A stretch of DNA of 64,000 nt, taken from positions 12,400,001 to 12,464,000 of the forward strand of contig CM022673.1 in NCBI GenBank assembly GCA_012295275.1, read 5' to 3'. The notes beneath the pieces are model-generated. The model was not told the DNA's origin, did not search any database, and worked only from the letters and a program-made list of their open reading frames with translations. The first letter of the stretch is position 1. The number at the start of each line of letters is the position of its first letter. The translations under genes and the position numbers were made by a program. Positions 11,701 through 61,653 of the stretch are shown here, piece by piece. The stretch comes from Chrysomallon squamiferum. Taxonomy: Eukaryota > Animalia > Mollusca.

Positions 11701-11987
11701 TAAAAATTATAATCAAAGAAAATTATAATCATTAAATTGATTAGTAACCAAGATTTCTGCAGATTTCTTTACTATTTAGTTTAATTTTATTTAAAACAGA
11801 CTAAGGGACATAACTCCACTATGAATGGGAAAAAGGAATGGAACTATTGAATCACACAATTCTTGTGCTTTATTAAATTAAGCACAAATATTATAAATAT
11901 TATAAAAATCATATAAAACAATTTGATAAAATTTTCTCATTTGTTATTAGTATTATGTACAAACAGACACAAAACAGTTTGATAAAA

Positions 11988-12038
<51 letters not shown>

Positions 12039-16334: not shown

Positions 16335-16374
16335 TCTGAAAATAAAATAGCCTGTGCTGTAAATGTTCTTCAAA

Positions 16375-16481
<107 letters not shown>

Positions 16482-24300: not shown

Positions 24301-24563
24301 AGTTTTGTATTTATATACGTGTTTGGATGATTTGATGGAAGGTTAATGTGTATATAGGTGTGTGTTTTAGTAAATACCTAAATATTTAGGTATTCTCTTT
24401 AATATTTGTACATTTGTAGCTCTGTATTTTGTTCCATGAACTGTGTATTTTTTATATTTATTTCCTATTTATTTTCAGTTGAAGAAAACAGTGGCAAACA
24501 GTGGTCCAAAGAAGGCTGAAAAGTTGATATAGTGTACGAAAAAGTCTCTGAAACATTGTCACA

Positions 24564-27500
24564 ATGAGGTGGTCCCAGAAGGACAAGGGTTTTGTACACT
24601 ACTGTACGAGTGTAACAGTGATACTATCAGTAATGCTGAATCTTTCCTTAAAACACTTAGCATCAGCAACCTCTGATTCCCTTTTAACAACAGATTCCAT
24701 GGACCTGTCCACGACGTTAGACTTATCGTACTGGTTAGTGAGCAGCATCAGTGATTTGTCCAGCAGTGATATGTCCAGTACTGGGTATTTAACGACAGAA
24801 ATATTTTTAACTGACAGTAGTATGACATATGTGACTATTACCCCCAGTGCGTCGATTGATATGGCAACAGCTTCCATGGATATCAGTACTGGATGGAGTT
24901 CTCCGTTATATTCAGACAGTGCAAGTATTCCGTTGTCAGAAAGTGATGTGAGTGTGACTGTTGTCACTGGTTCAGTGTCAGTGACAGAAAACATTGCTGT
25001 TTCGTTGTCAGAATATTCTCTTTCATCAGTGGATGGTACTTCGTTTATTAGCGAATCAGTCCAAGCGACAGACACCGTCATCGTGGATTCTCAGACTGTT
25101 TCGTATTCAGCATCAAATGTTGGTCTGGATATGTCTGTGTCATCTTACACGTCAGACACTCTCAGCATCGGAGATTCTTTATCTTCAGGAGCAACTGCGT
25201 ATTTGACTCTCACAGACACCAGCAGTCAGATGATATCTGATTCATCCTTAGCAGAGGCGCCTGGAACAACAACACCAGCTATGGACACGACTTCACCTTA
25301 TTCAATGGACATTTCCTTGTCGGTTTCCATGGACACGATGTCTCAATATTCCTTGGATACGACGTCATCTTATTCTCTGGACCCTTTCAGCCAATCCTTT
25401 TCAGTAGCAACGCCAACGGCAAGCATAACTACATCAGAATCTGCAAGTTTTGACGGATCAGCATCAGTCATCTATACAGTAACCTCTATTGCAGTTTCAG
25501 CAATCGACAGTAACACTCAAATAATTGGAGACTCTTCACAAGGTGTACTGACATCAAGTCAACCAATCTTGAGTTACGAATCTACCAGCATCACCTCCTC
25601 TGATGCTATTTCTAATGCGATTATGGACACCTCAACATTCTCTCCAGCATCAGCAAGCTTCGTCAGTTCTGATTCCTTTGCATACACAACCTCGGACGCA
25701 GCTGGATCAGTTACAGACATCCTAAGCATTAGTAGCTCGGATTTATCAGAACTCGGGAGTATGTTGATATCAAGTCAAACCACGTCAAATTCTGAATATG
25801 CAACTATTTTTTCACAAGACGCCACAGTTCTCGATATGTCTTCGTCACATCCGGCAGTGGACACTAGCCAACCATCAGTGATCAACAGTCTCTCAAGTTC
25901 TCAATCTGCGACCGCCATACTTAGTGATACAACGTCTGCAATATATGTGGAAAGCAACGTCCTGGAAACATCAGCACCAACAGGCACGTACTCTTTGGAA
26001 TTTATCAGCCAGTCAGGTAATACTGTTGTACAGTCAAACATTGATGTGTCGTTGTCTACGTATCAACAGCCAGAATTCCCAACATCAGTTGAATCCCTTC
26101 TAAGTAATATCTATCTGTCGTCCTTTTTCTCAGAACAATCGTTGCTAGGGTCAGCAGAATCTGTAGAGCATACCTCTGCATCATCTTTTTCAGGGTCCCT
26201 TCAATCCAGTCCATATACATCGACAATCAACGTACAGTCAATATTCGTATCAGAACATTTACTGACCGTCTCATATGATCTAACGATGAGTAGTTCATAC
26301 GCATCGTCAGAACACTCAGTATCCGTCTTATATGATCCAATGATAAGTAGTTCATATACCTCATCTGAACAGTCACTGTCCGTTTCATACGATTCAATGA
26401 TGAGTAGTTCATACGCGCCATCTGTACAGTCGGTATCCGTCTCATATGATCTAACGATGAGTAGTTCATATGCCTCATCTCAACAGTCAGTGTCCATCTC
26501 ATATGATCCAATGTTGAGTAGTTCATATGCCTCATCTGAACAATCAGTGTCCGTCTCATATGATCTAACTATAAGTAGTTCATATACCTCATCTCAACAG
26601 TCAGTGTCCGTCTCATATGATCCAATGACGAGTAGTTCATATGCCTCATCTGAACAGTCAGTGTCCGTCTCATATGATCCGATGATGAGTAATTCATATG
26701 CGCAATCTGTACAATCACTGTCAGTCTCATATGATCCAATGTTGAGTAGTTCATATGCCTCATCTGAACAGTCACAGTCCGTCTCATATGATCCAATGAT
26801 GAGTAGTTCATATGCGCCATCTGTACAATTAGTATCCATCTCATATGATCCGATGATGAGTAGTTCTGATGCTTCATCTGAACAGTCAGTGTCCGTCTCA
26901 TACGATCCAACGATGAGTAGTTCATATGCGTCATCTGAACAATCACTGTCCGTCTCTTATGATACAATGATGAGTAGTTCATATGCGCCATATGTACAGT
27001 CAGTGTCCGTCTCATATGATCCAATTATGAGTAGTTCATATGCGCCATATGTACAATCAGTGTCCGTCTCATATGATCTAACGATGAGTAGTTCATATGC
27101 CTCATCTGAACAGTCACAGTCCGTCTCATACGATCCAACGATGAGTAGTTCTTATGCTTCATCTGAACAATCACTGTCCGTCTCCTATGATCCAATGATC
27201 AGTAGTTCATATCCGCCATCTGTACAATCAGTGTCCGTCTCATATGATACGATGATGAGTAGTTCTTATGCCTCATCTCAACAGTCAGTGTCCGTGACAT
27301 ACGATCCGATGATGAGTAGTTCTTATGCTTCATCTGAACAGTCAGTGTCCGTCTCGTACGATCCAACGATGAGTAGTTCTTATGCTTCATATGAACAATC
27401 ACTGTCCGTCTCCTATGATCCAATGATGAGTAGTTCATATGCGACATCTGTACAATCACAGTCCGCCTCCAATGATGCAATGATGAGTAATTCATATGCG

Positions 27501-30500
27501 CCATCTGTACAATCAGTGTCCGTGTCATACGATCCGATGATGAGTAGTTCTTATGCTTCATCTGTACAATCAGTGTCCGTCTCATACGATCCGATGATGA
27601 GTAGTTCTTATGCTTCATCTGAACAATCACTGTCCGTCTCATTTGATCCAATGATGAGTAGTTCATATGCGCCATATGTACAGTCAGTGTCCGTCTCATA
27701 TGATACGATGATGAGTAGTTCTTATGCCTCATCTCAACAGTCAGTGTCCGTCTCATATGATCCGATGATGAGTAGTTCTTATGCTTCATCTGAACAGTCA
27801 GTGTCCGTCTCATACGATCCAATGATGAGTAGTTCTTATGCTTCATCTGAACAATCACTGTCCGTCTCCTATGATCCAATGATGAGTAGTTCATATGCGC
27901 CATATGTACAGTCAGTGTCCGTCTCATATGATCCAATGATGAGTAGTTCATATGTTCCATCTGTACAATCACTGTCCGCCTCCAGTGATGCAATGATGAG
28001 TAATTCAAATGCGCCATCTGTACAATCAGTGTCCGTCTCATACGATCCGACGATGAGTAGTTCTTATGCTTCATCTGAACAGTCAGTGTCCGTGACATAC
28101 GATCCGATGATGAGTAGTTCATATGCCTCATCTGAACAGTCACAGTCCGTCTCATACGATCCAACGATGAGTAGTTCTTATGCTTCATCTGAACAATCAC
28201 TGTCCGTCTCCTATGATCCAATGATCAGTAGTTCATATGCGCCATCTGTACAATCAGTGTCCGTCTCATATGATACGATGATGAGTAGTTCTTATGCCTC
28301 ATCTCAACAGTCAGTGTCCGTGACATACGATCCGATGATGAGTAGTTCTTATGCTTCATCTGAACAGTCAGTGTCCGTCTCGTACGATCCAACGATGAGT
28401 AGTTCTTATGCTTCATATGTACAATCACTGTCCGCCTCCAATGATGCAATGATGAGTAATTCATATGCGCCATCTGTACAATCAGTGTCCGTGTCATACG
28501 ATCTGATGATGAGTAGTTTTTATGCTTCATCTGTACAATCAGTGTCCGTCTCATACGATCCGATGATGAGTAGTTCTTATGCTTCATCTGAACAATCACT
28601 GTCCGTCTCATATGATCCAATGATGAGTAGTTCATATGCGCCATATGTACAGTCAGTGTCCGTCTCATATGATACGATGATGAGTAGTTCTTATGCCTCA
28701 TCTGAACAGTCAGTGTCCGTCTCATACGATCCAATGATGAGTAGTTCTTATGCTTCATCTGAACAATCACTGTCCGTCTCCTATGATCCAATGATGAGTA
28801 GTTCATATGCGCCATATGTACAGTCAGTGTCCGTCTCATATGATCCAATGATGAGTAGTTCATATGTTCCATCTGTACAATCACTGTCCGCCTCCAGTGA
28901 TGCAATGATGAGTAATTCATATGCGCCATCTGTACAATCAGTGTCCGTCTCATACGATCCGACGATGAGTAGTTCTTATGCTTCATCTGAACAGTCAGTG
29001 TCCGTCTCATACGATCCAACGATGAGTAGTTCTTATGCATCATCTGAACAATTACTGTCGGTCTCCTATGATCCAGTGATGAGTAGTTCATATGCGCCAT
29101 CTCTACAGTCAGTGTCCGTTTCATATGATCTAACGACGAGTAGTTCATATGCCTCATCTCAACAGTCAGTGTCGGTTTCATATGATCCAATGATGAGTAG
29201 TTCATATGCGCCATCTGTACAGTCAGTGTCCGTCTCATACGATCCAATGATGAGTAGTTCATATGCGCCATTTGTACAATCACTGTCCGCCTCCTATGAT
29301 CCAATGATGAGTAGTTCATATGCGCCATCTGTACAATCAGTGTCCGTCTCATATGATCTAACGATGAGTAGTTCATATGCGTCATCTCAACAGTCAGTGT
29401 CCGTCTCATATGATCCAATGATGAGTAGTTCATATGCCTCATCTGTGCAGTCAGTGTCCGTCTCATATGATCCGATGATGAGTAGTTCTTATGCCTCATC
29501 TCAACAGTCAGCGTCCGTCTCCGATGATCCTATGATGAGTAGTTCATATGCGCCATATGTACAGTCAGTGTCCGTCTCATATGTTCCGATGATGAGTAGT
29601 TCTTATGCCTCATCTGAACAGTCTGTGTCCGTCTCATACGATCCAGTGATGAGTAGTTCATATGCCTCATCTGAACAGTCACAGTCCGTCTCATATGATC
29701 CAATGATAAGTAGTTCATATGCGCCATCTGTACAGTCAGTGTCCGTCTCATATGATCTAACAATGAGTAGTTCATATGAGCCATCTGTACAGTCAGTGTC
29801 CGTCTCATATGATCTAACAATGAGTAGTTCATATGAGCCATCTGTACAGTCAATGTCCGCCTCATATGATACAATGATGAGTAGTTCATATGCCTCATCT
29901 GAACAGTCACAGTCCATCTCATATGATCCAATGATTAGTAGTTCATATGCGCCATATGTACAGTCAGTGTCCGTCTCATATGATGCGATGATGAGTAGTT
30001 CTTATGCCTCATCTCAACAGTCAGTGTCCGTCTCGTACGATCCAACGATGAGTAGTTCTTATGCTTCATATGAACAATCACTGTCCGTCTCCTATGATCC
30101 AATGATGAGTAGTTCATATGCGCCATCTGTACAATCACTGTCCGCCTCCAATGATGCAATGATGAGTAATTCATATGCGCCATCTGTACAATCAGTGTCC
30201 GTCTCATACGATCCGATGATGAGTAGTTCTTATGCTTCATCTGAACAGTCAGTGTCCGTCTCGTACGATCCAACGATGAGTAGTTCTTATGCTTCATCTG
30301 AACAATCACTGTCCGTCTCATATGATCCAATGATGAGTAGTTCATATGCGCCATATGTACAGTCAGTGTCCGTCTCATATGATACGATGATGAGTAGTTC
30401 TTATGCCTCATCTCAACAGTCAGTGTCCGTCTCATATGATCCGATGATGAGTAGTTCTTATGCTTCATCTGAACAGTCAGTGTCCGTCTCATACGATCCA

Positions 30501-33500
30501 ATGATGAGTAGTTCTTATGCTTCATCTGAACAATCACTGTCCGTCTCCTATGATCCAATGATGAGTAGTTCATATGCGCCATATGTACAGTCAGTGTCCG
30601 TCTCATATGATCCAATTATGAGTAGTTCATATGCTCCATCTGTACAATCACTGTCCGCCTCCAGTGATGCAATGATGAGTAATTCATATGCGCCATCTGT
30701 ACAATCAGTGTCCGTCTCATACGATCCGATGATGAGTAGTTCTTATGCTTCATCTGAACAGTCAGTGTCCGTCTCATACGATCCAACGATGAGTAGTTCT
30801 TATGCTTCATCTGTACAATCAGTGTCCGTCTCATATGATCCAATGATGAGTAGTTCTTATGCCTCATCTCAACAGTCAGTGTCCGTCTCATATGATCCAA
30901 TGATGAGTAGTTCATATGCCTCATCTGAACAGTCTGTGTCCGTCTCATACGATCCAGTGATGAGTAGTTCATATGCCTCATCTGAACAGTCACAGTCCGT
31001 CTCATATGATCCAATGATGAGTAGTTCATATGCGCCATCTGTACAGTCAGTGTCCGTCTCATATGATCTAACAATGAGTAGTTCATATGAGCCATCTGTA
31101 CAGTCAGTGTCCGTCTCATATGATCTAACAATGAGTAGTTCATATGAGCCATCTGTACAGTCAATGTCCGTCTCATATGATACAATGATGAGTAGTTCAT
31201 ATGCCTCATCTGAACAGTCACAGTCCATCTCATATGATCCAATGATTAGTAGTTCATATGCGCCATATGTACAGTCAGTGTCCGTCTCATATGATCCGAT
31301 GATGAGTAATTCATATTCGCCATTTGTACAGTCAGTGTCTGTGTCATATGATCCAATGATGAGTAGTTCTTATGCCTCATCTCAACAGTCAGTGTCCGTC
31401 TCATATGATCCAATGATGAGTAGTTCATATGCCTCATCTGAACAGTCTGTGTCCGTCTCATACGATCCAGTTATGAGTAGTTCATATGCCTCATCTGAAC
31501 AGTCACAGTCCGTCTCATATGATCCAATGATGAGTAGTTCATATGCGCCATATGTACAGTCAGTGTCAGTCTCATATGATCCAATGATGAGTAGTTCTTA
31601 TGCCTCTTCTGAACAGTCAGTGTCCGTCTCATATGATCCAATGATGAGTAGCTCATATGCGCCATCTGTACAATCAGTGTTCGTCTCATATGATCCAATG
31701 ATGAGTAGTTCGTATGCCTCATCTATGGAGTCAGTTTCCGCCTCTTATGATCCAGTGATGAGTAGTTCATATGCATCATCTGAGCAATCAATGGCCGTTT
31801 CATATGATCCAATGATGAACAGTTCATATGCATCATCTGAACAGTCGGTGTCCGTCTCATATGATCCAATGATGAGCAGTTCATATCCGTTTCATCTCAG
31901 AACAATGATGAGCAGTTCATATCCGTCATCAGAACACTCAGTGTCCGTCTCATATGATCCAATGATGAGCAGTTCATATGCTTCCTCTGAGCAGTCGGTT
32001 TCCATCTCATATGATCCAATGCTGAGTAGTTCATATGCCTCTTCAGAACATCCAGTGTCTGTCTCAGTTACGAGTAACCTAATCTCCTCACTTGCAACAG
32101 ACCAACATGATTCATCTCAGCCAGCATCATTTTCTAATGAGTTATTTATGAGTACTTATTCTATTGTTAGTAATTACGCTACCGAAACACTAGTGAGTAG
32201 TAATCCATTGCTGAGTAGTTACTCTACTGAAGCAGTGGCAAGTACTAATCCAGGTGTGAGTAGCAGCTATCAGCAGATGTCATCCTCAGTTTCTTTCGGA
32301 CAACTGTTGAGTAGTGTGTATGTGTCATCATCTTTCGTTGGACAGTCCGTGTCAGCTTATGTTTCACAGACTGTGATGAGTGTTCTGGGTGCCTCAACAG
32401 AACAATCAGTTTTCTATGAATCTTCAGAATCACAACTGGATATAACGAGCAGCCCGGATTCCTCTTCAAAATCAATGGAAATGTCTTTCTCTATTCCTTC
32501 ATCTATAATGGAACTTTCATTATCGCAGTCGATACCAGAAGCAGCGAGTAGTAGCTATTCTTTTTCGTTTTCAGTGGAACATTCTGTAACAGGCTCAGTC
32601 GAATCAGTGTATATTTCCTCAGTGCCAGTAGAAGATACATTATCAACATCAAACCCATCTGAACCAGTCACAGGTAGTTTCTATGCCTCGGAACATTCGT
32701 TATCTGATGAAACAGTTATGAGTAGTGACTATTATGTCTCCTCATTCTCGACGGAACAATCAGTATCAACATCAGGTGAGTTAATGTCGAATAGTCTCTA
32801 TGCCTCGAATTTACTAACAAAACTTTCACTGCTAACCGCAATCTCAGTTGAACCTACCACCGTGTCGGTAAAACAATTAATATCACTAACAAATAACCTT
32901 TATGCCTCCTCATTCTCAGTGGACGAAGCTAAAGCAGTATCACATGACTTAATGTCGAGTAGTTTCTATGCCTCTTTTACATTCACAGACCAATCATTCT
33001 TAACCGTTAACTCAGATGAATTATTAAGTAGTATTTACGTGTCAAAAGAAAAACCAGTAACAGCCGAATCGCTAAAGAATAGTATATCTCAGGTTTCCTC
33101 TTTATTAGGGGATCAGTCCTTTACTGGTTCAGATGAGTCATTATCATATGTCATTTACTCCACTTCGTCTTTTAAAATGTCACCATCCACAGCATCAGAT
33201 TTCAGTGATTTCTTTTTTTCTTCATCATTAACAGAACAGCCATACTTATTATCAGGTTCCGAAGAAACTGTAATGAAAAGTGTATACACTTCTTTATCTT
33301 CCCTAGAACGGTCACTGTTACTCGAATCACTAATGATTAGCTCATATGTCTCTTTGTTGCAAATTTCCCAAGCTTTAGTTTCCGCTGAACCAGCAACGAA
33401 TTATCTTTTCAGCACAATAGAAACATCAAAACCATCTGAAATTGTAATGAGAGGTTCAGATTCTGTTTTGTCAAACTCAGTGACAGGCGAATTAGTATCG

Positions 33501-36500
33501 AATGGACTCTATATATCCACTTTATTAACCGAGCAAACGTCCACTTTATTAACAAAACAAAAATCCACTTTATTCACAGAACAAATACCCACTTTAATAG
33601 AACAGACATCCACGTTGATAAATTCAGATGAAGCTATCATTAGCCCCAATCTATATACCTCTAAACTCTCTTCTGAACACTCAAGTCAATTCATGTCGCA
33701 TAGTCTCTATATATCCACAGAAGAAATATCCATGTCAGTAAGCTCATATGAAACTGTCATTAATTCCGCTGTCGCTATAGATCAGTCAGTGTCCGCGGTG
33801 TCAATGACCGATGGTCACTATACCTCCACATTCTCTATGCAGCAGTCAAATGAATTAATAGCGAGTAGAAATTTTGTCTCTTCTTTACTAACTGACCAAT
33901 TATCACTAACATTGAATTTACTTCTACCTATGAGTAGTCGCTATGCATCAGTAGAACATTCAGCATCAGTGGAATCATTAAAAAGTGGTGTGTATGTTTC
34001 TTCACCATTAGTAGAACAATCAGGATTAGATGAGTCAGTGACTCATAGTCTATACGGCTCTTTTGTATTGACAGATCTGTCACCAATTATTATTACAGCA
34101 ATGAGTGACTTCTTTGACACCTTGTCAATAACAGAACAGTTATTCTCAGTATCAGGTTCTCAGGTTTTTGCCTCTTTGCCCTCGTTGTCAGTTTCAGCTG
34201 AATTAATAGTAAGGAATCCTGATGAATCCATAATTTCAGTGGAAGAGTCACCATCACTAGAATTAGTCATTATCGGTTTGAATATATCCTCGTCTATGAT
34301 AGATCCAACATCCCCAGATACCGTTTCAGCTGAATTAATAACTAGTAGACTGCATTCTTTCACAGAACAGCCAGGGTCATCTGAATTAATAACCAGTACA
34401 ATTCACTCTTCCGCAGAACATTCAGCGTCATCTGAATTAATAACTAGCAGACTGCACTCTTCCGTAAAACTGTCAGCGTCAGCTGAATTAATAACTAGCA
34501 GACTTCACTCTTCCGCAGAACAGTCAGCGTCAGCTGAATTAATAAGTAGTAGACTGCACTCTTCCGCAGAACAGTCAGCACCATCTGAATTAATAACTAG
34601 CAGACTGCACTCTTCCGCAAAACAGTCAGCGTCAGCTGAATTAATAACTAGCAGATTGCACTCTTCCGCAGAACAGTCAGCGTCATATGAATTAATAACT
34701 AGCAGACTGCACTCTTCCGCAGAAGATTCAGCATCATCTGAATTAATAACTAGAAGACTGCACTCTTCCGCAGACCAGTCAGCGTCATATAAATTAATAA
34801 GTAGCACACTGCACTCTTCCGCAGAACAGTCAGCATCATCTGAATTAATAACTAGTAGACTGCAATCTTCCGCAGAAGATTCAGCGTCAGCTGAATTAAT
34901 AACGAGTAGACTTCACTCTTCCGCAGAACAGTCAGCGTCATCTCAATTAATAACTAGTAGATTGCACTCTTCCGCAGAAGATTCAGCGTCATCTGAATTA
35001 ATAACTAGTAGACTGCACTCTTCCGCAGAACAGTCAGCATCATCTGAATTAATAACGAGTAGACTTCACTCTTCCGCAGAACAGTCAGCGTCAGCTGAAT
35101 TAATAACTAGCTGCAATCTTCAGAACAGTCAGAATGAATTAATAACTAGTAGACTGCACTCTTCCGCAGAACAGTCAGCGTCATCTGAATTAATAACCAG
35201 TAGACTGCACTCTTCCGCAGAAGATTCAGCGTCATCTGAATTAATAACTAGCAGACTGCACTCTTCCGCAGAACAGTCAGCGTCATCTGAATTAATAACC
35301 AGTAGACTGCACTCTTCCGCAGAACAGTCAGCGTCAACTGAATTAATAAGTAGCACACTGCACTCTTCCGCAGAACAGACAGCGTCATCTGAATTAATAA
35401 CGAGTAGACTGCATTCTTACGCACAACAGTCAGCATCATCTGAATTAATAAGTAGCACACTGGACTCTTCCGCAGAACAGTCAGCGTCATTTGAATTACC
35501 AACTAGTAGACTTCACTCTTCCGCAGAACAGTCAGCGTCAGCTGAATTAATGACTAGTAGACTTCAGTCTTCCGCAGAACAGTCAGCGTCAGCTGAATTA
35601 ATAAGTACCATACTGCACTCTTCCGCAGAACAATCAGCGTCATCTGAATTAATAACTAGTAGACTGCACTCTTCCGCAGAACAGTCAGCGTCATCTGAAT
35701 TAATAACCAGTAGACTTCACTCTTCCGCAGAACAGTCAGCGTCATCTGAATTAATAACTATGAGACTGCACCCTTCCGCAGAACAGTCAGCGTCATCTGA
35801 ATTAATAACTAGTAGACTTCAGTCTTCCGCAGAACAGTCAGCGTCATCTGAATTAATAACTAGCAGACTGCACTCTTCCGCAGAACAGTCAGCGTCATCT
35901 GAATTAATAACTAGTAGACTGCACACTTCCGCAGAACAGTCAGCGTCATCTGAATTAATAACTAGCAGACTGCACTCTTCCGCAGAACAGTCAGCGTCAT
36001 CTGAATTAATAAGTAGCATAATGCACTCTTCCGCAGAACAGTCAGCGTCATCTGAATTAATAACTATGAGACTGCACTCTTCCGCAGAACAGTCAGCGTC
36101 AGCTGAATTAATAACTAGCAGACTTCAGTCTTCCGCAGAACAGTCAGCGTCATATGAATTAATAACCAGTAGACTTCACTCTTCCGCAGAACAGACAGCG
36201 TCAGCTGAATTACTAAGTAGCACACTGCACTCTTCCGCAGAACAGTCAGCATCATCTGAATTAATAACTAGTACAGTGCAATTCTTCCGCAGAACAGTCA
36301 GCGTCAGCTGAATTAATAACTAGCAGACTTCAGTCTTCCGCAGAACAGTCAGCGTCATATGAATTAATAACCAGTAGACTTCACTCTTCCGCAGAACAGT
36401 CAGCGTCATCTGAATTAATAACCAGTAGACTTCACTCTTCCGCAGAACAGTCGACGTCATATGAATTAATAACTATGAGAGTGCACCCTTCCGCAGAACA

Positions 36501-48500: not shown

Positions 48501-51500
48501 ATTTGAAATAACGGGAACGAGTAGTGTATCTTTGCTATCACTGAAAAGGTCGATATCACATTCGGGTGACATAACGGTAAGTAGTCTGTATGATTCTATT
48601 ATTTCTATAGAATATTCACCGTCTGTTGTTCAATCAGAATTTGATAATTCCTATACCTCTTCCTTACTAACAGATCAGACATATTCTGTCTCCTCATTCT
48701 CAACTGAAACAGTCAGCAGCAGTACATATGTCTCTGCGAAAAATTCAGATTCATTTATTTCAGTAACCGGAAATTCTAATTATATCTCCTCATTCACGTC
48801 ACTGGCAATTTCAGCTCAGTTATTATCATCACCTACATATCAGTTATTACAACTGTCAAGTTCAGATGAAACTATCAGGAACAGTCCATATGATTCATCT
48901 GATCAGTCACTAACAGCTGAATTAATATCGAATACAGTACAAGACTCTTTGTACACAAAGGTACAGACAAAATCAGTTTTGACTGAACATATATTAAGCA
49001 GGTTCTTTGACAGTACCATTTCAGATGAACAGACCTCATCACTAGTATCATTTATGAGTAATTTATATACGTCTTTCTCACTGACAGATCAGTTATATCC
49101 TGATCTCACTGATAAGCAAACTGAGTTTTCCAAACCTACTGAAATAGTAATCAGTATTGCAGAATCAGCTGAGATAATGTCATCACTAACAGATCAGTCC
49201 TTACTAGTATTAAGCTCAGCTGAAATGACTACGAGTAGACCATATCATTCACTTTTTCAGGAAATATCAGATGAATCGTCTCTGAATAAAGACTATATTT
49301 CTTCTCCCCCAGCTGAACAAACTGTGACAGATGAATTAATGTTTAGTGTTTATACTTTTTCTACCTTTTCGTTAGAACAATTTGAATCAGTTACTTCCGT
49401 AATCAGTGTGTTTTCTGTCTCTTCATCTTTGATAGAAGAAACGTCCTTAGTTTTAAATTCAGCTGAAGCAATGATTAGTAGTGACTATGTGTCAGATAAT
49501 AAATTAATTATTAGTTTATCTACTTCGTTTTCTTCTGTGAAACAGTTAGAGTCAGGTGAATCATCAGCAGACAGTTTGTATGCCTCATTATTGGATAGGA
49601 ATTCGGTCTCAGGATTACCACTGAGCAATCACATTTATACATATTCACAATCAGAGGAACAATCACTTTCATTTTCAACGACCATTTCTTATTCTATATT
49701 TCTGTCAGTTGAACAATCTAATTTAGTGTCAAGTTCATTCGAATTAGATTCGAGTAATCTTCAAATTTCATTGTCTACTCCAACGTCTTCACAGCCAATA
49801 CAGTTAATTTCAGTGTCAACAGATACAGACATACATACATATACTAGTAGTCTCTTTGGAGTTTCAGATTCAGATAATCAGAGGAGGTCAAAGTCACTGG
49901 AATTAACTTTGAGCACTTTTGAGTTTTCCTCGCTTTCGGTGGAATATTCAGCAACATTTATCCCATTTCTCAGTAGTTTATATTCTCCATCACCATCAGA
50001 GGAACAGTCTGTATCGATTCAGCGAATGTTAAATAATTTTGTTTCCTCATCATCCTCTAATGAATTTTCAGTAAAGGTTACAGATCAACCTTCGATAACT
50101 AGTTATGACATGTTCTCACCTACTGTGGAACAGACGACGTTTGATTCAGGCGACCTGACAAGTAGTTCTAATGACTTTTCGGGTACTCTTCAACTGCCAT
50201 CATCAGTTGAATCCCTAACAAACAGTCTCTACACCTCCTCTTCCCTGATAGAACAAAAACCTCCCACCTTAAGTTCAGATGAATCAGTGATGAATAATCT
50301 TTACATCTCAACAGAACCATTAGTATCATTTGACTCAGAAACAAGTAATTTGTACCTAACTTCCTCATTCTCACTGACACAGCCATTGTTAGTGTCAATT
50401 ATTTACACTGATTCATCATCAGTAATTGAACAGTCATTCCTAATCTCGAGTTCACCTGAAAACATCATCAGTAATGTCCATACTTCAGAAAAAACATTAA
50501 TGAATAGTATGTATTATGCATCCCCACTATCACTGTCAGGTGATTCAGTAATGAGTAGCCTTTATGCCTCTTCAATTTCTTTGCAACAGTTATTGTCACA
50601 ATCATCAATGTCAGCTGGTCACGTGCTCAATAATCTTATTTCTTCATCTTTCTCACCTGAATTTTTACTAACAGATTCACGTGAGCAATCAGTATTTGAT
50701 TATTACACTTTTTCACCCAGTATAGATAATTCGGCGTCAGTTACAGGTGAATCTAAAGATAATAGTTTCTATGATTTTTCGATTTCACTTGAACAGTCAC
50801 AATCAGTTGAATCAATAATGAGTAGTGCTTATGTATCCTCTTCACCAGTAGAAGAAACATTTTTCACCTTAAGCTCATATGAACCAATCACGAATGGTGT
50901 GTATATCGTAGTAGAACCGTCAGTTGAATCAGAAACAAATATTTTGTATTATACTTCAACTGTTTTAGAAGAGTCATTGTTATCGTCAGATGAATTAATG
51001 TCAAATATTTACAGTGTTCCGTCGTCATTAGCACAACAGTTATTCTTAGCCTTAAGTTCACATAAAACAATTATAAGTAGTGTTCTTCCATCAGAAGAAC
51101 TGTCCATAACGGATAAAAGAATAACAAGAAGTATAAATTATTATGCAACATCCCTGTCGCATGAAGAATCAGTATCACTGTCAGGTGATTCAATATTGAG
51201 CGGCCTTCATGCCTTAGTCTCAAATTCACACGAAATAATTACTAATATTGTCAGTCCTTCAGAGCGACTGTCCATATCAGATGAAACAACAAAGAGTGAA
51301 GTATATTATTCTTCTTCTCTGTTAATAACAGATGATTCGACGTTCAGTGGCCTTTATTCCTCGTCGATGATAGAAGAAATATATTCAGACTCACTTGAAA
51401 CTGTATCTGCGATTCATTACACTTCAGTTGAAAAGTCAGCATTAGTGTCAGTTGAATCAGTTTCTGTCTCGTTTGAAACGATAATAAGTATTTCATATGC

Positions 51501-54500
51501 CGTTTCTTTCTCAGTGGAACCATCCGTTTTAGTCTTAAGTTTATTTGAACCAAATTTCAGTAATCTCTACCTGTCACTCTCCTCCCAGTCTGTACCAGTC
51601 GTTTTCGAATCAGTTAGTAATACACTAGTGTCTCCACGGTCAGTACAGTTAGTTTCAAACTCAGTAGATACATATAGTAGCAATCAACATAGCTCTTCAC
51701 TGTCATTTGATCGGATAGAGTCAGAATTATTTGAATCAAATAGTAATAAGCTTTATGCTCCCTCACTCTCTGTGGCAGAACCACCATCTTCTGAATCATT
51801 GCTGAGTAGTCTGTATTTTTCATCTTCCTCAGTGGAGCAATCCTTATCTCTTGATCCAGTTCCCAGTACTCTTGTTTCTTCATTTTCCTCGACTGGATTT
51901 GTACAAGTTGTTTCAAATGAACAATCATTAAACAACTTGTTGTCCACCGGAGAGCAATCGGCATCAGTTAAAGACGAATCGACACTAAACAGTTTCTACC
52001 ATTCTTCGATTTTACTTGAACCGACACGATCAGCTGAATCAGAAATGAATAATATTTATACTTCCTCTGAACAGATATTTTCAACTTTAATCTCAAAACC
52101 GTCAGCTGAATCAGTTAAATCAGAATCAAACAATTTGTACTACAGCTCCTCACTCTCTCTCGAACAGTCACTGATAGTGTCAAATGAGTTAATACCAAAT
52201 AGTTACTCTGTCTCATCGCCACTTATAGAGCAGATATCCTTAACCTTAATGTCACATAAAACAATTACGAGTAGTCTGTTTGCCCCAGCGGAACAGTCAG
52301 AATTAGCTGAAAAAGAAAAAACAACAAGTGATGCGTATTATGTCTCGTCATTCTCAGTGGAACAGTCACTATCAGTTTCAATTGATCCACTGTCGAAACC
52401 TCTTTATACATTTTCTTTTTCTGTGGAACAGCTAGTATCAGTAGCATCTGTAATGAACGATTTATCTGTCTCTTCTTCTGTGTTAGAGCAGTCGTTTTCA
52501 GACTCAACTGAAACAATAACAAACAATCGTTATACTACATATGAACAAATTACTAGTCTGTTTTCCTCATCATCTTCAGGTGAACAGTTAGTGTCAGTTG
52601 AATCAATTTCAGACATTATTTATAGCTCCTCATTCTTTTTGGATAAGACAACTGCAATTTCGGCTGAGCCATTGATGAGTAATGTTTACACCTCTTTGCA
52701 CACAGAAGCATCATCCTGGTCATTCTCATTCACAAGTAGTTCCCACACCTCAAAGTCAGTATCAATTGAAACAGCAACAAAAGATTTATATTATACATCG
52801 TCGATCTTTGTAGAACAGTCTGTACTAAAGTTAGTATCGAGTGGCCTTTATGCTTCTGTTTCTTTGGAAAAAAATGTTATCAGCTGCATCAGCAATAAGT
52901 TATCCTTTTGTCTCGTCATCTTCAGTAGTACAAACATTCTTAGCCTCTGTCTCGACTGAAGCAATAACTAGTAATCCTGATACGTTATTTGAGGAAACAG
53001 TGTCATCTGAACAAACTGATATTAATCTCTCTAAATCATTAACTTCAGTGGAACATTTAATTTCAGTTTCATTTGAATCCGTTAGTTCTTATACCTCCTC
53101 GTATATGTTGGACGTGTCATTGATGATTAATATTTATGCCTCCTCGACCTCGGCCGAAAAATCAAGTATATTTGAACCGATGATAGATAGTACTTATGCT
53201 GAATCATTGTTAGTGAACCGGTTTATTTCGGTCTTGTCCTCACCTCTCCACACTTCAACGACATTTCAGTTGGCTCCATCTTTTACAGAATCGGTTAGTA
53301 ACGTACGTGCATCTTTACAAATCTCACAAACTGTAAATTCAGTAATCAGAGATTTCAGCAGTTCTTCACTTTCAGATGAATATGTAAAGTCAGCATCTAC
53401 TGAATCAGAGACAGACAGTACGTACATTTCCTCACAAACAAAACCAATAGTAACTGAAACAATGTTGGGTAGTCTGTATGTTTCTTTATCTTCACTGAAA
53501 CAACAAGCATCATCTGAATTACAGCTCAGTAATCTTTATGCCTCAACTAAGTTATCGATGCCATTAGAAGAAATATTCAGTAGTATTTATCCTTCCTCGC
53601 AATCAACTGAATATTCAGTGGCAGTTTCAAGTGAACCTTCATTAAATAGCCATTCTATTTTTTCGATGTCTCTGGATCAAATTGCTGGTAGTATCTTTGC
53701 TTCTAATTTCGTGGAACAGTCTTTTTCTGCCTCTGTTCACTCTCTGAAGAATATCTATCAGTCCTCTGATACAGCGGACCAATCTGTTTCAGGTTCCACT
53801 TCAGTCGAACCAGTTTTCACTTCTATTTCTTCCTTATCTTACACAGAGTCAAAATCGGGAAATACTGATGAATATATTTCTTCATACCTAATCGAACCTT
53901 CTTTTTCTGTTTCAGATGAATTGTTAGTCAGTAGTTTTTATTCCTTCTCTCAGCCTAAGACACTGTCAGCTTCGATATTAACATCAGACGAACTTATTTT
54001 CACTTCTTTCTCTACTTTGTCTTATACGCTTGAAGAATCGGTTTCAGAAAAATCATTGATAAATACTGTATCTGTCGCTACGAATTCTAAAATAAAAAAT
54101 GTCTACGTCACGACAATCTTAGCTCAGTCACAATCTACAGTTTCGTTGGAACATTTAGCTTCAGATACGTTATCGCTGGTTGGTAATGACATTTTCTCTT
54201 TACTAATAACCCACGGGTCAAGCACTATCTCAGCAGAGTCATTTACCAGTAGTTTTTATATCGCATCGCCTGAATCAACATCGGATATTATTTCTTCTTT
54301 CATAACTTATGATCAGTTCTCATTCTCGTTTGAACCAGCGACAAGTAGCATTTTTACCTCCTCCCAATCTCCGAAACATGTATCACTCAACTCAGAATCA
54401 ACGGGTTTGGAATCCATTGTTTATGAAATGAGTAATACCCATCTCCACACGATGGAACAGATACAACTAAGTTCAGTTTCAGTAGAACCATCAATAAGCA

Positions 54501-57500
54501 GTTTCTATTTATCCTCAGTTCCGAATGAACAGTCATTTTCAGATTCAGTTTCGAACTCCATCAAAGCAAATTTTACTTCTTTCTCTACATCATCACACTC
54601 ACTGGAACAGTTGATTTCAGGCAGTTTGTTGGAGGAGAATGTATTTATTTCTTCATCTTTTGTAGAATATTCTTTTTCTAAATTTGATGAACCATTAATA
54701 AGTACCCTGTAATGGCTCTACTTGGTCAGCTTCAGATCAAATTTCGGCAATTTCAGTTAGTTTCTCGTCAACTGAATCAGTGATGACTAGTTTATATGTA
54801 TCTCCAACATCTGTGGAAAATTCTGTTACTCTGTCTCAAGAAATACCGGTCACTAGCATCTATATCTTTTCACAATCAATGGAACCACTTTCAGGCTATT
54901 TCTCTTCGTATTCAACTGACCATTCAGTGCCCGTGACAGAAGAACTTATAAGTGTTTCTTTAACATCATTATCTGAATCGATATCAGACAGTTTATATAT
55001 TTCTCCTAACGTAATGGAAAATTCGCTATCAATACCTGAATCAAATGCGAGTACATTTTATGTTCCTTCACACTCAATATCAGTATCAGTTGATCCCGTT
55101 TCGAGTAGTCCGTATACACTGTCAACTACAGCAGAACAATTACGTTCAGTATCATTTAAGCAAAGTATAAGTAGTCTATATTCCTCTTCGTATTCCTTGG
55201 AACAGTCAGTATTAACTAAACTTGCATTAAGTAGTTTCTATGCATCTTTATCCTTAATGGAACAGTCCGTGTCAGTATCAGTATCAATTGAACCACATTT
55301 TACTAGTCAGTATACATCTTCATACTCACTGGAACAGTTGTTATCAACCGAACCACATCTGATTAGTCTATATACATCCTCTTACTCAGTGGAACAGTCA
55401 GAATCATATTTGAGTAGTTTGTATATAACGTCTTACTCGGAGGTAAAGCATGTGTCAGTTGAACCAGATTTGGATAATCTCTATTCATCTTCATACCCAA
55501 TGGAACAGTCAATACTGCTATCAGAAAATTCAGTTTCTGCTAGTTTATATATGTCTTCATATTCAGTGAAAGAATCAGTTTCAGAATCGACTGATCGAGA
55601 TTTGAGCAGTATATATATATCTTCATACTCGGCGGAAGACTCTTTGTCACTATCAGTTAAACCAAATTTAAAAAGTCGCTATATGTCAATACAACCTCTT
55701 TTTAGTAGTCACTATGCATCTTCATATTCAGCGGAACAGTCAGTCTCAGCATCAGATGAATCAATTTCGATTATTCCGTATATACTCTCATCAACTGAAC
55801 CAACAGAATCATTCTTGATTGGTCTCTATACATCTTCGAACTCCGTTGAAAAGTCAGTGTCGTTATCAGCTGAACCAGTTTTGAGTAGTCTTATTGTTTC
55901 TTCATATTCACTGGAACAATCAGATACAGTATCAGTTGAAACAGATTTAAGTAGCCTTTATGTATCTTTATATTCTGTGAAACCATCACGGTCAATATCC
56001 ATAGAACCAGTTTTGAGTAATATCTCTACATCTTCAGACTTAATGGGACAATCAATATCAGCCCATCCGGTTTTGGACAGTCCCTATAAAACTTCGTACT
56101 CAGAGTCAGTGTCTGAATTAAATCAACTAGTTAATAGTAGTCCATACTTATTAGAACAGTCAATATCATTATACTCATTGGAACAGTCATTTAATGGTCT
56201 GTCTACAACTTTATACTCAGTGTCAGCATCATATGAACTAGCTATCAGTATTTTTATACATCTTCTTATTCAGTGGTACAGTCAGTATCAAATGAATCAC
56301 ATCTGAGTAGTATGTATCTATCACCTTACGCAATAAAGCAGGTGGTTTCTGTATCAACGCAACCACATTTGAGTAATCTCTATACATCTTCTTATTTAGT
56401 GGAACATTCAACAACTTCATACTCAGGAAAACAGTTAAAATCAGTAACAAATGAAATACATTTCAGCAGTCTGTACACATCTCTATATTCTGTGACACAG
56501 TTAAAACCAGAATCAAGTGAACCATATTTCAGTAGTCTGTACACCTCTACTTACTCAGAGGAACAATTAATATCACAATCAAGTGAACCACATCTGAGTA
56601 GTCTGTACACCTCTGTTGACTCTGTGGAACAGTTAACATCAGAATCAAATGAACCACATTTTGGTACTCTGTACACATCTGCTTACTCAGCGGAAGAGTT
56701 AATATCAATATCAAGTGAACGACTTTTGAGTAGTCTGTACACATCTCTATACTCTGTGGAACAGTTAATACCAGTATCAAGTGAACCATATTTCAGTAGT
56801 CTCTACACCTCTACTTACTCAGAGGAACAATTAATATCACAGTCTAGTGAACCATATTTGAGCAGTTTGAACACATCTGCTTACTCAAAGATACAATTAA
56901 TATCAGTAACAAGTGAACCACATTTGAGTTATCTGTACATATCTGCTTACTCAGAAAAGCAGTTAATATCAGTATCAATTGAACAACATTTGAGTAGTCT
57001 GTTCACATTTGCTTACTCAGAGGAACAGTTAACATTAGTACATAGTGAACCACATTTGAGTAGTTTGTACACATCTGCAAACTCAGAGGAGCAGATAATA
57101 TCAGTATCAAGCGAAGCACATTTGAGTAGTCTGTATGCCTCTGCTTACTCAGATGAACACTTTATATCTGCAGTTAATATCACACACAGTAACAAATTGT
57201 GAACAACATTTGACTTTATATCACAATCTAGTGAACCACATTTGAGTAGTGTGTACACATCTGCTTACTCAGTGGAACAGTTAATATCAAGTGAACCACA
57301 TCTGAGTAGTCTATACACCTCTGCTGACTCTGTGGAACAGTTAATTTCAGTATCAAGTGAACCACATTTGAGTAGTCTGTACACATCTGCTTACTCAGTG
57401 GAACAGTTAATATCAAGTGAATCACATCTGAGTAGTCTGTACACGTCCGCTTACTCAGAGGAACTGCTAATACCAATATCAAGTGAACCACATTTCAGTA

Positions 57501-60500
57501 GTCTGTACACATCTGCTTACTCAGAGGAACAATTGAGATCGGCATCAAGTGATCGACAAATGGATAGTGTGTACAGATCTACTTACTCAGTGGAACAGTT
57601 AATATCAAGTGAACTGACATCTACTGACTCCCGAGAACAGTTAATATCAGTATCAAGTGAAGCGCCTTTGAGTAGTTTGTACGCCTATGCTTACTCAGAT
57701 GAACAGATAATATCACTATCTAGTGAACCATATTTGAGTAGTCTGTACACATCTGCTTACTCAGTGGAACAGTTAATATCAAGTGAATCACATCTGAGTA
57801 GTCTGTACACGTCCGCTTACTCAGATGAACTGTTAATATCAATATCAACTGAAGTACAGTTCAGTAGTCTGTACACATCTGCTTACTCAGTGCAACAGTT
57901 AAAATCAGTATCAAGTGAACCATTAGTATCACTATCTAGTGAACCACATTTGAGTAGTCTTTACACATCTGCTTACTCAGAGGAGCAGTTAATATCAGTG
58001 TCAAGTGAACCACATTTGAGTAGTGTGTACACCTCTTCTTTATCAGAGGAACAATTAATATCATTATCTAGTGAACCACGTTTGGGTAGTCTTTACATAT
58101 CTGGTTACTCAGAGGAGCAGTTAATATCAGTATCTAGTGAACTATATTTCAGTAGTCTGTCCACGTCTGCTTACTTAGAGGAACAGTTAATATCAGTATC
58201 AAGTGAAGCATATTTTAATAGTGTGTACACATCTTCTTACTCGGTGGAACAGTTAATATCAAGTGAACCACAACTTAGTAGTCTGGACACCTCTGCTGAA
58301 TCTGTGGTACAGTTCATATCAGTGTCAAGTGAACCACATTTGGGTAGTCTGTACAAATCTGGTTACACAGAGCTACAGTTAATATCAGTATCAAGTGAAG
58401 CGCATTTGAGTACTCGGTACACATCTGCTTTCTCAATGGTACAGTCAATATCAGTGTCAAGTGAACCACTTATGAGTATTCTGTACACCTCTGGTTACTC
58501 AGATGAACAGTTAATATCAATATCAAGTAAACAATATTTGAGTACCCTGTACACATCTGCTGACTCAATGGTATATTTAACATCAATATCAAGTGAACCA
58601 CATTTGAGTATCCTGTACTCATCTGCTGACTTTGTTGTACAGTTAGTATCAAGTGAATCACATTTCAATAGTATGTACACATCTGCCTACTCAGTGGAAC
58701 AATTGATATCGGTATCAAGTGAACCACATTTGAGTAGTTTGTACACGTCTGCTGACTCTGTAGAACAGTTAATATCAAGTGAACCACATTTGAGTAGTTT
58801 GTACACAGTATCTATTGAACCACATGTGAGTAGTTAGTCTGCTGACTCTGTAGAACAGTTAATATCAGTGTCAAGTGAACCACATTTGAGTAGCCTGTAC
58901 ACATCTGCTTACACAAAGGAACAGTTAATATCACTATCAAATGAACCACATTTGAGTAGCCTGTACACATCTGCTTACACAAAGAATCAGTTAATATCAG
59001 TATCAAATGAACCACATTTCAGTAGGCTGTACACGTCTGCTTACTCAGAGGATCAGTTAATATCAGTATCAAGTGAAGGACATTTGAGTAGACTGTACAC
59101 ATCTGCTTACTCAGTGGAACAGTTAAAATCAGTATCAAGTGAATCACTTTTGAGTAGTCTGGGACAATCAGTGTTTACCTTAGCTCTGTCTTCGATAACC
59201 TCTGTAGAACCAGATTTCAGTAGTTTCTACGCCGCCTCTTTATCAGAACAGCTGTTATCATCTATTTTTATTGAGCCTGCAAGTAGCATGATTGACTCCC
59301 AAACTATGACAAATCCGTCAGTGACATTTGAAGTGATGTTTAGTGGTGATTATACATCGCCATATGCACTGGAACACTCAGATGAGTCAACGTTAGATAG
59401 TGTATATATATCATCACACTCTGTGGAACTTTCAGTATTTGTTTCATCAGAGACATTACTGAGTGATAGCTATACCCACTCGTCTTTGGTATATATATCT
59501 GTATACGCTGAATCGCTTGGGGATAACCTCTTCACCTCTATCCACGTCAGTTGAATTTTCACTGTCAGATGAACCGCAGTTCAATGGTGAGTATGTCTCC
59601 TCTCATTCATCTCAGCAGTCGGTATCTGTCTCAGATGAACCGCCTTTCATTAGTGTATACACCTCCTCAGTAGAACAGTCTTTACCTGAATCTTTCTTAA
59701 GTAGTCGCTATGCCTCATCGCACTCAATAGAACAATCACTATCGATGGAATCAATGTTGAGCCATTTCTATGCTTTCTCTACTTCACTGAAACTGCCAGG
59801 ATCCTTTGAACCACTGCTTTATGTTTCGTCAGACTCAGTAGAATACTCGATATCAGTGTCATTACCTTCGTCATTAAACACAGTGCAACAATCTGTTTCA
59901 TTCGATCCATTAGTAAGTAATATCTATTCCTCCTCATATTCAGTGGAAATATTAGTAGCAAGTTCAAGTTTACCTCTAATAAGTAGTCTCCATACCTATC
60001 TACCATCGTTAGATATTCACGTTTCAACAGAACCACTTGGACTCTACACCTCTTTACAAATAATGGATTCGTCAACGTCTAAGACCCCAAATAGTATTAT
60101 TACAAGCTCAGATGTTTCTTCTGTTATAAATATTTCAATATCTACGTCACAAAATGACCAATCAGTATCATCGACTTCAGGACCAGTGATGAACAGTATC
60201 CACATCTCATCACTGTCTGTGTTAGTGTCATCGATCATCAGTAGCCAGTATATGACGTCATCTTCGTCTCAGATCTTGGTGTCAACCTCGCTTCATCCTT
60301 CTGAGAATATCCTGTTTCATTCGCCCTCAGCATCCATAGAATCTTTGACAACAATTTTCCATTCATCCCTTTCATCAACAGAACCAGAATCAGGTTTATC
60401 AGATTCTCTATCGAGTAGTATCTTTGGACCATCAGTTTTAGACATTTACGTATCAACCGTTTCTGCTGAGCTCCTGCTAAGCAGTTTCCTTGATTCTACG

Positions 60501-60654
60501 TCATCTTTATCTATATCACACTCTGCTGTTTTAGTTGTAGCAAGTGGTTTTCTGTCAGCTCCACAATCATTTGAGTTGTCGACGAGCGGCATGTTTCAGT
60601 TTCTAACAACTGAAAAGCAGTCAGTATCTTCTGATGTTTTTATCTTTTACTCAG
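24564..60654 (+). CDS. Giant secreted/extracellular Ser-rich acidic repeat protein (mucin/adhesin-like), ~36-kb first coding exon, ~12,000 codons, interrupted by probable assembly indels
   Basis: Acceptor tatttattttcag| at 24478; ATG 24564; signal-peptide-like MRWSQKDKGFVHYCTSVTVILSVMLNLSLKHLASA. ORFs 24564-36311, 36475-, 37681-, 39300-42554, 42502-52959, 52841-54712, 54780-56306, 56273-57202, 57242-58837, 58868-59554 and 59463- abut or overlap with the same composition and no intron-like DNA between them. Phase-1 donor TCA G|gtatct at 60654. Confidence 0.75.
26253..32066 (+). repeat. Coding tandem array 1: 57-bp/19-aa unit EQSVSVSYDPMMSSSYASS, ~100 copies
   Basis: Unit gaacagtcagtgtccgtctcatatgatccaatgatgagtagttcatatgcctcatct is directly visible; copy number estimated from span/57. 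Confidence 0.95.
34326..39311 (+). repeat. Coding tandem array 2: 51-bp/17-aa unit EQSASSELITSRLHSSA, ~95-100 copies
   Basis: Unit gaacagtcagcgtcatctgaattaataactagtagactgcactcttccgca is directly visible. Confidence 0.95.
56275..59160 (+). repeat. Coding tandem array 3: 66-bp/22-aa unit EQLISVSSEPHLSSLYTSAYSE with a 57-bp/19-aa short variant, ~45 copies
   Basis: Recurrent gaacagttaatatca(gtatca)agtgaaccacatttgagtagtctgtacacatctgcttactca. Confidence 0.9.
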
Positions 60655-61653
60655 GTATCTTTTCTTTACAATTATTGCATTTCTCGTGTGATATGTGTGT
60701 CACATTAGACGTGGAAGTAGTTTAGAAGGTAACACTTTTTTACTTCATTTTCTACTTCAGGCTGCGCTTTACAAAGCAGTCTAGTCTTTAAGGATTTAAT
60801 ATGTACCTTTGTAGTTTAGTAATGTAACATATGATATATATGTACAATGTATAATTGTTCATGTGGTATATATGTAGAATGTACTGGTATAATTGTTCAT
60901 ATGGTTTCAGATTATTAAAGTCTTTGTGAATAGAGGACTGGATTTATGAATATTTAAATATCGTTATGATTACAAAATGAAAAGCATTGATAAAATGTTT
61001 AATATAATAAAAGTTTTACTAATTTAATTACCATCAGTGATTGTATGTGAGTATACATATATGGTAATTTATGATATATATATATATAAAATACTCTTTT
61101 CCTCTTTTTATGGTGCATTCATCTATGTCTATCTAACTACCATTCTTTAAAAAAGATAAAGAAAATTAGGTTAATAACAGTAAAAATGTGAACTTTTAAC
61201 AAAATGTTTTATAACCACAAATGTCAACACTGAACTAATCCTTTTCTTTCATAATTAGAATTTTACTAACATTTGTCACATAATTTAGAATTGTACATTT
61301 GAAACTAATTTCACTTTTGTATCATTATGCTGATTTATACTCTTGATACCACAAACATCGTATATGAATTAATAAATATAAATAAATATTTAAAAAAAAC
61401 AGTTGTTATAAAATCATTCATGATATTTTGTTTATATGGAACAGTCATTCAAAATAAATCAACTGAAATTTATACAATTCACTACATCAATATTACATCA
61501 GTACTATGTATATTTTTTTTTTAATTATTTTTATTAACATTGATTAGAATAGTACTTTAAAACATTTTCACGCATTATCCACCTAGAAATGAATGCAAAT
61601 GATAAGATTCATCATATTTAAAAATATTAATATTTTAAACTCTTCTGTTTCAG

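Follow-up and report, generated by a model that had tools for sequence, protein, structure and literature searches.

Giant coding exons and giant secreted repeat proteins have been described from several animals. Exon 2 of the caddisfly h-fibroin gene is reported to span 12,709-29,502 bp (PMC10387566), and serines of its (SX)nE motifs are described as phosphorylated and as binding Ca, Mg, Fe, and Zn (PMC10387566, PMC13267644). In humans, exon 3 of MUC16 exceeds 21 kb and a titin exon exceeds 17 kb, with further giant internal exons given for MUC12, MUC4, MUC17, and MUC5B (PMC3467050). The coding sequence of spider AgSp1 is listed as 42,270 bp in two similarly sized exons (10.1101/492025), and flatworm Mlig-ap2 as 14,794 amino acids (aa), with an exon of at least 15 kb in Mile-ap2 (PMC9229212). 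Among shell proteins, S-x-E, the motif of Fam20C, or a related motif is reported to fit about a third of limpet shell matrix phosphosites, with the kinase present in the proteome (PMC4094399), and knock-down of fam20C to disturb oyster nacre (PMC5824888). Here, we report a 36,176-bp interval on the plus strand of a 64,000-nucleotide stretch of snail DNA (contig CM022673.1; hereafter, the window), which is likely one intact coding exon, its single-exon splicing being deduced from the DNA alone, of a gene for a giant Ser-rich protein.

Caddisfly H-fibroin offers the best functional analogy for a phosphoserine-based, metal-binding chain: as published, it too is secreted, has Ser-rich repeats encoded nearly all in one giant exon, has Ser motifs closed by Glu, and varies in length among alleles. 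The snail exon, in contrast, is without Gly-rich spacers (Gly, 1.1%), and no sequence similarity to the silk was found; H-fibroin is recognized by (SX)nE motifs, n = 3 to 5, between Gly-rich spacers, whereas the snail exon holds few of them (26 (SX)3E, 3 (SX)4E, and 0 (SX)5E), which makes the likeness one of analogy and not of membership. It is also longer than the reported h-fibroin exon 2 and ends in a splice donor, from which the gene continues. Human mucins share one very large exon, tandem repeats rich in hydroxy amino acids, and an extracellular product (PMC3467050), but the snail exon is built on Ser and Glu rather than Thr and Pro, reaches 36 kb, and is accompanied by no SEA, vWD, or transmembrane parts in the window. 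AgSp1 is close in the scale of its coding sequence and in having repeat blocks of several kinds; the spidroin terminal domains reported for it, however, were not found by Pfam in the snail protein, and the host is no arachnid. Mlig-ap2 and Mile-ap2 are likewise giant, secreted, repetitive proteins of marine invertebrates for which long reads were needed, but no similarity to them was detected, and the Mlig-ap2 exon may rival the snail exon in size. Limpet shell phosphoproteins of the Fam20C type resemble it in being secreted, of low complexity, and furnished with S-x-E sites (PMC4094399), whereas the snail protein is far larger than the shell proteins listed there, and its phosphorylation and shell location are predictions. 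By analogy, the chain would work like these known giant Ser-rich extracellular proteins, caddisfly fibroin and shell phosphoproteins above all, and it is a member of none of those tested.

A non-exhaustive literature search, made without Drosophila dumpy, the nematode giants, and Mlig-ap2, found no animal coding exon longer than those named above. Intronless fungal peptide-synthetase genes can exceed 45 kb, and therefore no record is claimed outside animals. If confirmed by RNA, the exon would exceed the largest internal exon of humans by ~15 kb and the longest silk exon in the sources consulted by ~7 kb, and it would be a natural test of the limits of exon definition and uninterrupted transcription.

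Our preferred reading, to which we give a probability of about one half, is that the product would be a secreted, disordered chain that is phosphorylated at its S-x-E motifs by a Fam20C-type kinase and acts in a matrix, mucus, or adhesive by binding multivalent cations. Hundreds of these serines would be phosphorylated in the Golgi, some perhaps carrying O-glycans instead; the phosphorylated chain would be a megadalton polyanion that binds metal ions in extracellular matrix, mucus, or glue, and selection would keep its frame, length, and composition rather than its exact sequence. New here are the single ancestral repeat unit, its S-x-E motifs, and the 85-nucleotide (nt) untranslated start. 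The gene is a specific candidate for encoding a matrix polymer that binds metal in a family of hydrothermal-vent snails, the peltospirids, which includes the iron-sulphide-armoured scaly-foot snail.

Exon boundaries, repeat unit, and composition

The interval (24479-60654, +) lies between a strong acceptor ending at 24478, with a polypyrimidine tract and AG, and a phase-1 donor, and the GTG codon split across 60654/61654 fuses two Ser-rich frames. From the ATG at 24564 to 60654, the coding part measures 36,091 bp (~12,030 codons; 1.29 MDa); with the next exon, the product exceeds 12,800 residues and runs beyond the window end. The first 85 nt (24479-24563) contain no ATG, have in-frame TGA codons at 24480, 24525, and 24549, and are closed in all three frames, so the candidate upstream exon cannot add coding sequence, and the 20608/24479 junction, if real, falls within the 5' untranslated region. 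The GC content of the interval was 0.38, with a minimum of 0.31 per 300 bp, whereas the minimum was 0.19 for the 999-bp intron and 0.18 for the upstream DNA; homopolymers reached at most 7 bases and dinucleotide runs at most 10, compared with long microsatellites in the upstream DNA. Every 1-kb bin between 25 and 59 kb, apart from six that contain frame shifts, had a positive codon score in one frame, whereas all bins between 16 and 24 kb scored negative in each frame.

An earlier note on this DNA had described a single 36.2-kb coding exon, uninterrupted and free of microsatellites and AT-rich, intron-like DNA, tiled by plus-strand open reading frames of one composition and joined in phase to a further exon of a protein of >12,800 aa that continues past the window. 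The absence of such DNA was borne out (GC, ≥0.31 per 300 bp; no long runs), as were the tiling and common composition of the reading frames, the phase match of the donor at 60654 with the acceptor ending at 61653 (GTG split codon, frames joined), and the protein length (~12,030 codons plus the next exon in frame). The exon itself kept its size and boundaries, except that its first 85 nt are untranslated and coding starts at 24564. It is indeed free of microsatellites but carries three long coding arrays (57, 51, and 66 bp) and 14 assembled breaks; with 5/5 frameshifts outside the 51-bp array corrected in other contigs, it nonetheless fits a very large, probably intact exon. It would be larger than the MUC16 and TTN exons, but that comparison had passed over caddisfly h-fibroin exon 2, at up to 29,502 bp in the published account.

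After its first 560 residues, the exon consists of one ~20-residue unit amplified ~500 times (~100, 100, and 40 array copies plus ~240 degenerate matches) and bearing S-x-E motifs. The unit follows approximately the pattern S-x-E, three variable residues, S-S-L-Y, x-S-S, S-x-E-Q. A profile of the 66-bp array matched the 57-bp array (44 matches versus 2.8 in shuffled sequence), the 51-bp array (13 versus 1.1), and nontandem parts too, with no match to the N-terminal region or the next exon. A second profile, trained on four degenerate parts, found 122 units in 3,453 held-out residues against 11 ± 3 in 100 shuffles, at spacings of 17 to 24 residues with peaks at 17, 20, 22, and 24; it gave 2 matches in the N-terminal region 24669..26240 (1.8 in shuffles) and 1 in the 714 residues of the next exon. 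Spacings in the 57-bp array were 57 in 100/101 cases, with one of 36, and in the 51-bp array 51 in 89/99, the other 10 being garbled units. The exon thus grew by tandem amplification of this one short unit within one exon, with three local waves of homogenisation (57, 51, and 66 bp). The next exon holds, at 62511-64000, a 33-bp/11-residue Ser-Val-Ile-Glu array that lacks S-x-E and any relation to the main unit, a second, independent repeat expansion within one gene.

S-x-E occurs 580 times in the exon, against 258 ± 13 in shuffles, and the ancestral ~20-residue unit has two positions of this type. The exon protein is 29.8% Ser, 9.5% Leu, 7.3% Glu, 7.0% Val, 6.3% Thr, 3.4% Pro, and 1.1% Gly (Ser+Thr, 36%; Thr/Ser, 0.21; Lys+Arg, 2.5%), with 2 Cys and 7 Trp, and has a net charge of about -990 before phosphate. 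The 7,572 codons outside the arrays contain no Cys, where positional base use predicts 109; His and Gly in the same codons are near their base-composition expectation, and in a control exon from the neighbouring gene, 13 of 523 codons are Cys. The 266 Asn form 23 N-glycan sequons. Outside the unit core, 15/126 Asn lie in a sequon, compared with 60/219 AGY serines that would do so and are one mutation away (p = 7e-4); the control exon, with 7/38 Asn in sequons on a background of 19%, has no such deficit. For proteins of the secretory pathway, it is important to avoid free thiols and N-glycan sites.

The first 35 residues look, on inspection, like a putative signal peptide, with predicted cleavage at a small-x-small end (residues 33-35) after a hydrophobic core peaking at 2.31 (11-residue Kyte-Doolittle); its K/R residues at positions 2, 6, 8, and 30 are the only basic residues in the first 559. 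Entry into the secretory pathway is supported indirectly by this leader together with the purging of Cys and N-sequons. The claims of the earlier note that the protein is secreted, on which the same three features bear, that it is Ser-dominated with almost no Cys or Trp (29.8%, 2, and 7), and that its composition departs from that of typical proline-threonine-serine (PTS) mucins all agree with these data: at PTS thresholds of Ser+Thr ≥ 40% and Pro ≥ 5%, 111/1,194 100-residue windows pass, 104 of them at 26-34 kb and nearly all in the 57-bp array.

Homologue searches were blank. Pfam found no domain, vWD/CK and SEA included, in eight segments of the gene (without pieces of the 51-bp array, 56238-57202, and 58835-59525), the best match, at E = 0.098, being rejected as noise; residues 1-3,900 held no Pfam family at E ≤ 0.1, and the spidroin N-terminal domain was not found there. 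The N-terminal 559 residues had no relatives among 1.84 billion representatives, a blank weakened by low complexity; the 3,453-residue middle had no homologue among proteins of 1,899-6,043 residues, a result weakened by these length limits and by low complexity; and the unique part of the next exon had no match among proteins of 500-2,000 residues, with the same reservation for length. A 24-base pattern had no match in metagenome contigs. Atlas matches of 0.77 (Candida Als) and 0.83 (a hypothetical protein) lay below the reliable range and were set aside. We dropped a SEA-like domain that took three frameshifts to read at the exon start, as the main frame gives an unbroken ATG and leader; two 5' "breaks" near the exon start were an artefact of imposing a phase-1 start.

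Frame breaks and polymorphism

The assembled frame is interrupted 14 times, by 11 frameshifts and 3 stops. At least 10 sequencing runs shared words with the window, 7 of them half or more of its words; no RNA run was among those listed, which carries no information on expression. Four DNA runs, from at most three studies, of which the top run may be the assembly's own source sample, supplied short-read contigs that were compared over 39400-56420 and 56300-62500 (~21 kb of the 36-kb exon); joints with sides of ~20-31 letters, and one at the edge of the compared stretch, were discarded as repeat misplacements. A single-base loss at 42505/42508 restored the frame in 4/4 runs, and another at 52866 was present in 4/4 runs, in run X6 at 29/110 of the depth. 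Among the rows listed, one base was lost at 54711 in two runs, with one gap there in a third contig, and one base was gained at 56250 in three runs. At 59537-59540, alleles of -10 and -1 explain the whole depth in 4/4 runs, and the assembly therefore blended two haplotypes. Runs X1 and X2 skip a 54-bp block that includes the stop at 57200, and their joined frame is open. Six of the 14 breaks, namely stop 57200 and each of the five frameshifts that lie outside the 51-bp array, are thus absent from other contigs.

Breaks in the 51-bp array sit in garbled units (89/99 spacings are regular). Because 66% of the 31-mers there are nonunique, short-read polishing fails in this array. In parts of the 66-bp array, summed contig depth is raised, but this does not measure copy number; array lengths are as assembled. 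Further garbled stretches keep the frame, at ~31900 (a 36-bp unit in the 57-bp array) and 35097-35190 (35- and 55-bp units in the 51-bp array); these supply one of the only two Cys and are likely further assembly errors. About a dozen assembly errors can thus be enough for annotation to lose a gene of >12,800 codons.

Sizable polymorphic coding indels were divisible by 3 in 16/16 cases (a list made by hand; one lies in the next exon), compared with 1/3 in intron 60655..61653 (+1, -32, and -9 among runs). Among the 79 coding single-nucleotide polymorphisms (SNPs) listed (of 868 rows; one intronic row was dropped), none was a true nonsense change, with ~3 expected; an apparent one at 56932 belongs to a change of three bases, found in a single contig, that gives Arg. 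Synonymous SNPs made up 25/78, against 0.30 expected under neutrality (p = 0.71). Distinct variants of the 57-bp array favored synonymous sites (29/37 versus 49/120 nonsynonymous; p = 7e-5), and copies of the 51-bp array had no such preference (12/39 versus 43/104; p = 0.33). Single-codon indels segregate, and unit length varies from 17 to 24 residues. A 33-bp in-frame insertion at 52090-52095 occurs in runs X1, X6, and X7 and is absent from the window; with the other in-frame indels, it makes the protein polymorphic in length. The frame is guarded and the exact sequence mostly free, as in disordered spacers. These are the marks of a living extracellular protein in which frame and composition are under selection while other residues drift almost neutrally, and so of a clear example of selection that spares the sequence itself.

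Competing readings of the product

Several observations count against a phosphorylated chain translated whole. Eight of the 14 breaks (seven in the 51-bp array and stop 58835) stand as assembled, and a real break in that array or at 58835 would cut the protein at ~3,900 or ~11,400 residues; a joint at 55339-55350 (run X2; 10 bases skipped and a fill in their place) could not be sized; and the difference rows examined were 79 of 868, the indel rows being covered in part. In the held-out motif columns, third codon positions are about as conserved as first and second ones, except in two Ser columns; S-x-E thus decays at approximately the rate of the DNA, and its retention is therefore largely ancestry and no proof of selection. 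The motif is not in excess in the N-terminal 559 residues (5 versus 5) or at the start of the next exon (6 versus 6). The leader was recognized by inspection, and equal hydrophobicity is reached elsewhere in the protein; one SNP (42033) creates a Cys. AlphaFold2 gave a confident parallel beta-helix for the youngest repeats, with one turn per repeat. The conservation of kinase sites in invertebrates is itself called unknown in the limpet study (PMC4094399).

The strongest competitor, a tentative one, leaves the giant exon intact and makes its product the O-glycosylated spacer within a protein that is tethered to the membrane or has several domains, S-x-E having come with the founding repeat by accident; the spacer would hold a distal tip off the cell or form a protective glycocalyx. 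All frame and secretion tests fit it equally. Its Ser+Thr content of 36% would suit such a part, as found in proteins of the mucin, KIAA1549-like, adhesion G-protein-coupled receptor, and polycystin types with a Ser-rich stalk, and the junction at 60654 is of phase 1, as is common where modules of extracellular mosaic proteins meet; the gene goes on in another Ser-rich exon that has no excess of S-x-E. The C-terminal domains and membrane segments typical of these families would lie past position 64000. The largest human internal exons, moreover, are reported to be nearly all mucin exons (PMC3467050). O-glycosylated spacers sit less well with a Thr/Ser ratio of 0.21, with 3.4% Pro and PTS thresholds reached in only 111/1,194 windows, and with S-x-E-type positions retained in all three separately homogenised arrays. 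The two readings overlap, because a tethered protein could also be phosphorylated. The fullest form of the phosphorylated-chain reading is possible but doubtful: that this is the longest animal coding exon spliced on both sides (36.2 kb) and encodes a lineage-specific, molluscan phosphoserine polymer of at least 1.3 MDa, with ~580 kinase sites, convergent with caddisfly silk and binding iron or calcium in the shell, scales, or mucus of a vent gastropod.

It is quite improbable that the interval is not translated as one piece, through hidden in-frame introns, alternative splicing, a real break, or a gene newly decaying. Stop-free in-frame introns would be compatible with the DNA taken alone, amino-acid polymorphism is near neutral, and the eight breaks that stand point the same way; but all six resolved breaks were assembly errors, and the irregular units of the 51-bp array are short and garbled, lacking both the length and the signals of introns. 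Past that array, moreover, indels still keep the frame, and stops and Cys are still lacking, a state that would not last if translation ended there. Very unlikely, too, is a rod a few hundred nanometers long in which each ~20- to 22-residue unit would form one rung of a parallel beta-solenoid. AlphaFold2, given 180 residues encoded by the 66-bp array and 21 internal stretches as the alignment, returned this fold in 3/5 models (predicted local distance difference test score [pLDDT], 81; predicted template modeling score [pTM], 0.74), the unit length is typical of solenoid rungs, and the model matched the beta-helices 7akv_G (Z, 14.6; root mean square deviation [rmsd], 2.7; 177 aligned) and 3lyc_A (Z, 14.2; rmsd, 2.5; 157 aligned). 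Foldseek found no match to the solenoid model at E ≤ 0.001, however; 200 residues of the older region gave a pLDDT of 46 and no structure, and AlphaFold2 is said to be biased on repeats and to invent such solenoids (PMC11795689). The substitutions and single-codon indels tolerated in the unit speak against rungs and argue for the predicted disorder of the phosphorylated chain.

Features of the window and neighbouring genes

The features of the giant gene are collected in Table 1. Close to the start of the presumed first intron (20629-20700, +), a short frame for hydrophobic residues opens with an ATG; it may be due to chance and cannot join the giant frame via the 24478 acceptor.

Table 1. Features of the giant gene in the window
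Feature	Position	Strand	Remarks
Candidate upstream noncoding exon, 79 bp	20530..20608	+	AG before, GTATGT after
Untranslated first 85 nt of the giant exon	24479..24563	+	No ATG, three in-frame TGA
Start codon and signal-peptide-like leader, ~35 residues	24564..24668	+	First in-frame ATG
Nonrepetitive Ser/Thr-rich N-terminal region, without repeat unit	24669..26240	+	
Young tandem array, 57 bp/19 residues, ~100 copies	26241..32066	+	Ser/Tyr/Met-rich
Degenerate ~20-residue units	32067..34325	+	28 profile matches in 753 residues (in training set)
Young tandem array, 51 bp/17 residues, ~100 copies	34326..39312	+	6 frameshifts and 1 stop (36282-38316)
Degenerate ~20-residue units, 17 kb	39313..56429	+	Assembled frameshifts 42505, 52866, 54711, 56250
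Diverged tandem array, 66 bp/22 residues, ~40 copies	56430..59161	+	Stops 57200, 58835
3' end of exon with phase-1 donor	59162..60654	+	Frameshift near 59537-59540
Intron, 999 bp	60655..61653	+	GC 24%, GT-AG, closed frames
Next coding exon, Ser-rich	61654..64000	+	33-bp array from 62511; runs off window; frame break near 63800

Head to head with the giant gene lies an ICE2-like (little elongation complex subunit 2) gene (~7200-16640, minus strand). The sole match of one of its exons was a Gigantopelta aegis protein (81% identity over 94% of 51 residues), from a species described as a peltospirid vent snail (PMC7895826). The host is therefore probably a gastropod related to G. aegis but distinct from it. 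This gene would serve as a synteny anchor for tracing the giant gene in relatives.

A small two-exon gene occupies 55-886 on the minus strand, with a 17-residue signal-peptide exon from 886 and an exon at ~55-383 for a Gly/Met/Arg-rich peptide. By composition only, it weakly resembles the Gly/Met-rich major limpet shell protein as described (PMC4094399). This secreted Gly/Met-rich gene lies 24 kb upstream of the giant gene and was counted as weak support for a matrix role.

The observed/expected ratio of CpG was 0.20 in the ICE2-like gene body, 1.08 in the upstream spacer, and 0.76 in the first 31 kb of the giant exon, falling to 0.15-0.23 at 56-59 kb and 63-64 kb. The pattern would suit a housekeeping gene that is methylated, next to a tissue-restricted one, or just repeat composition.

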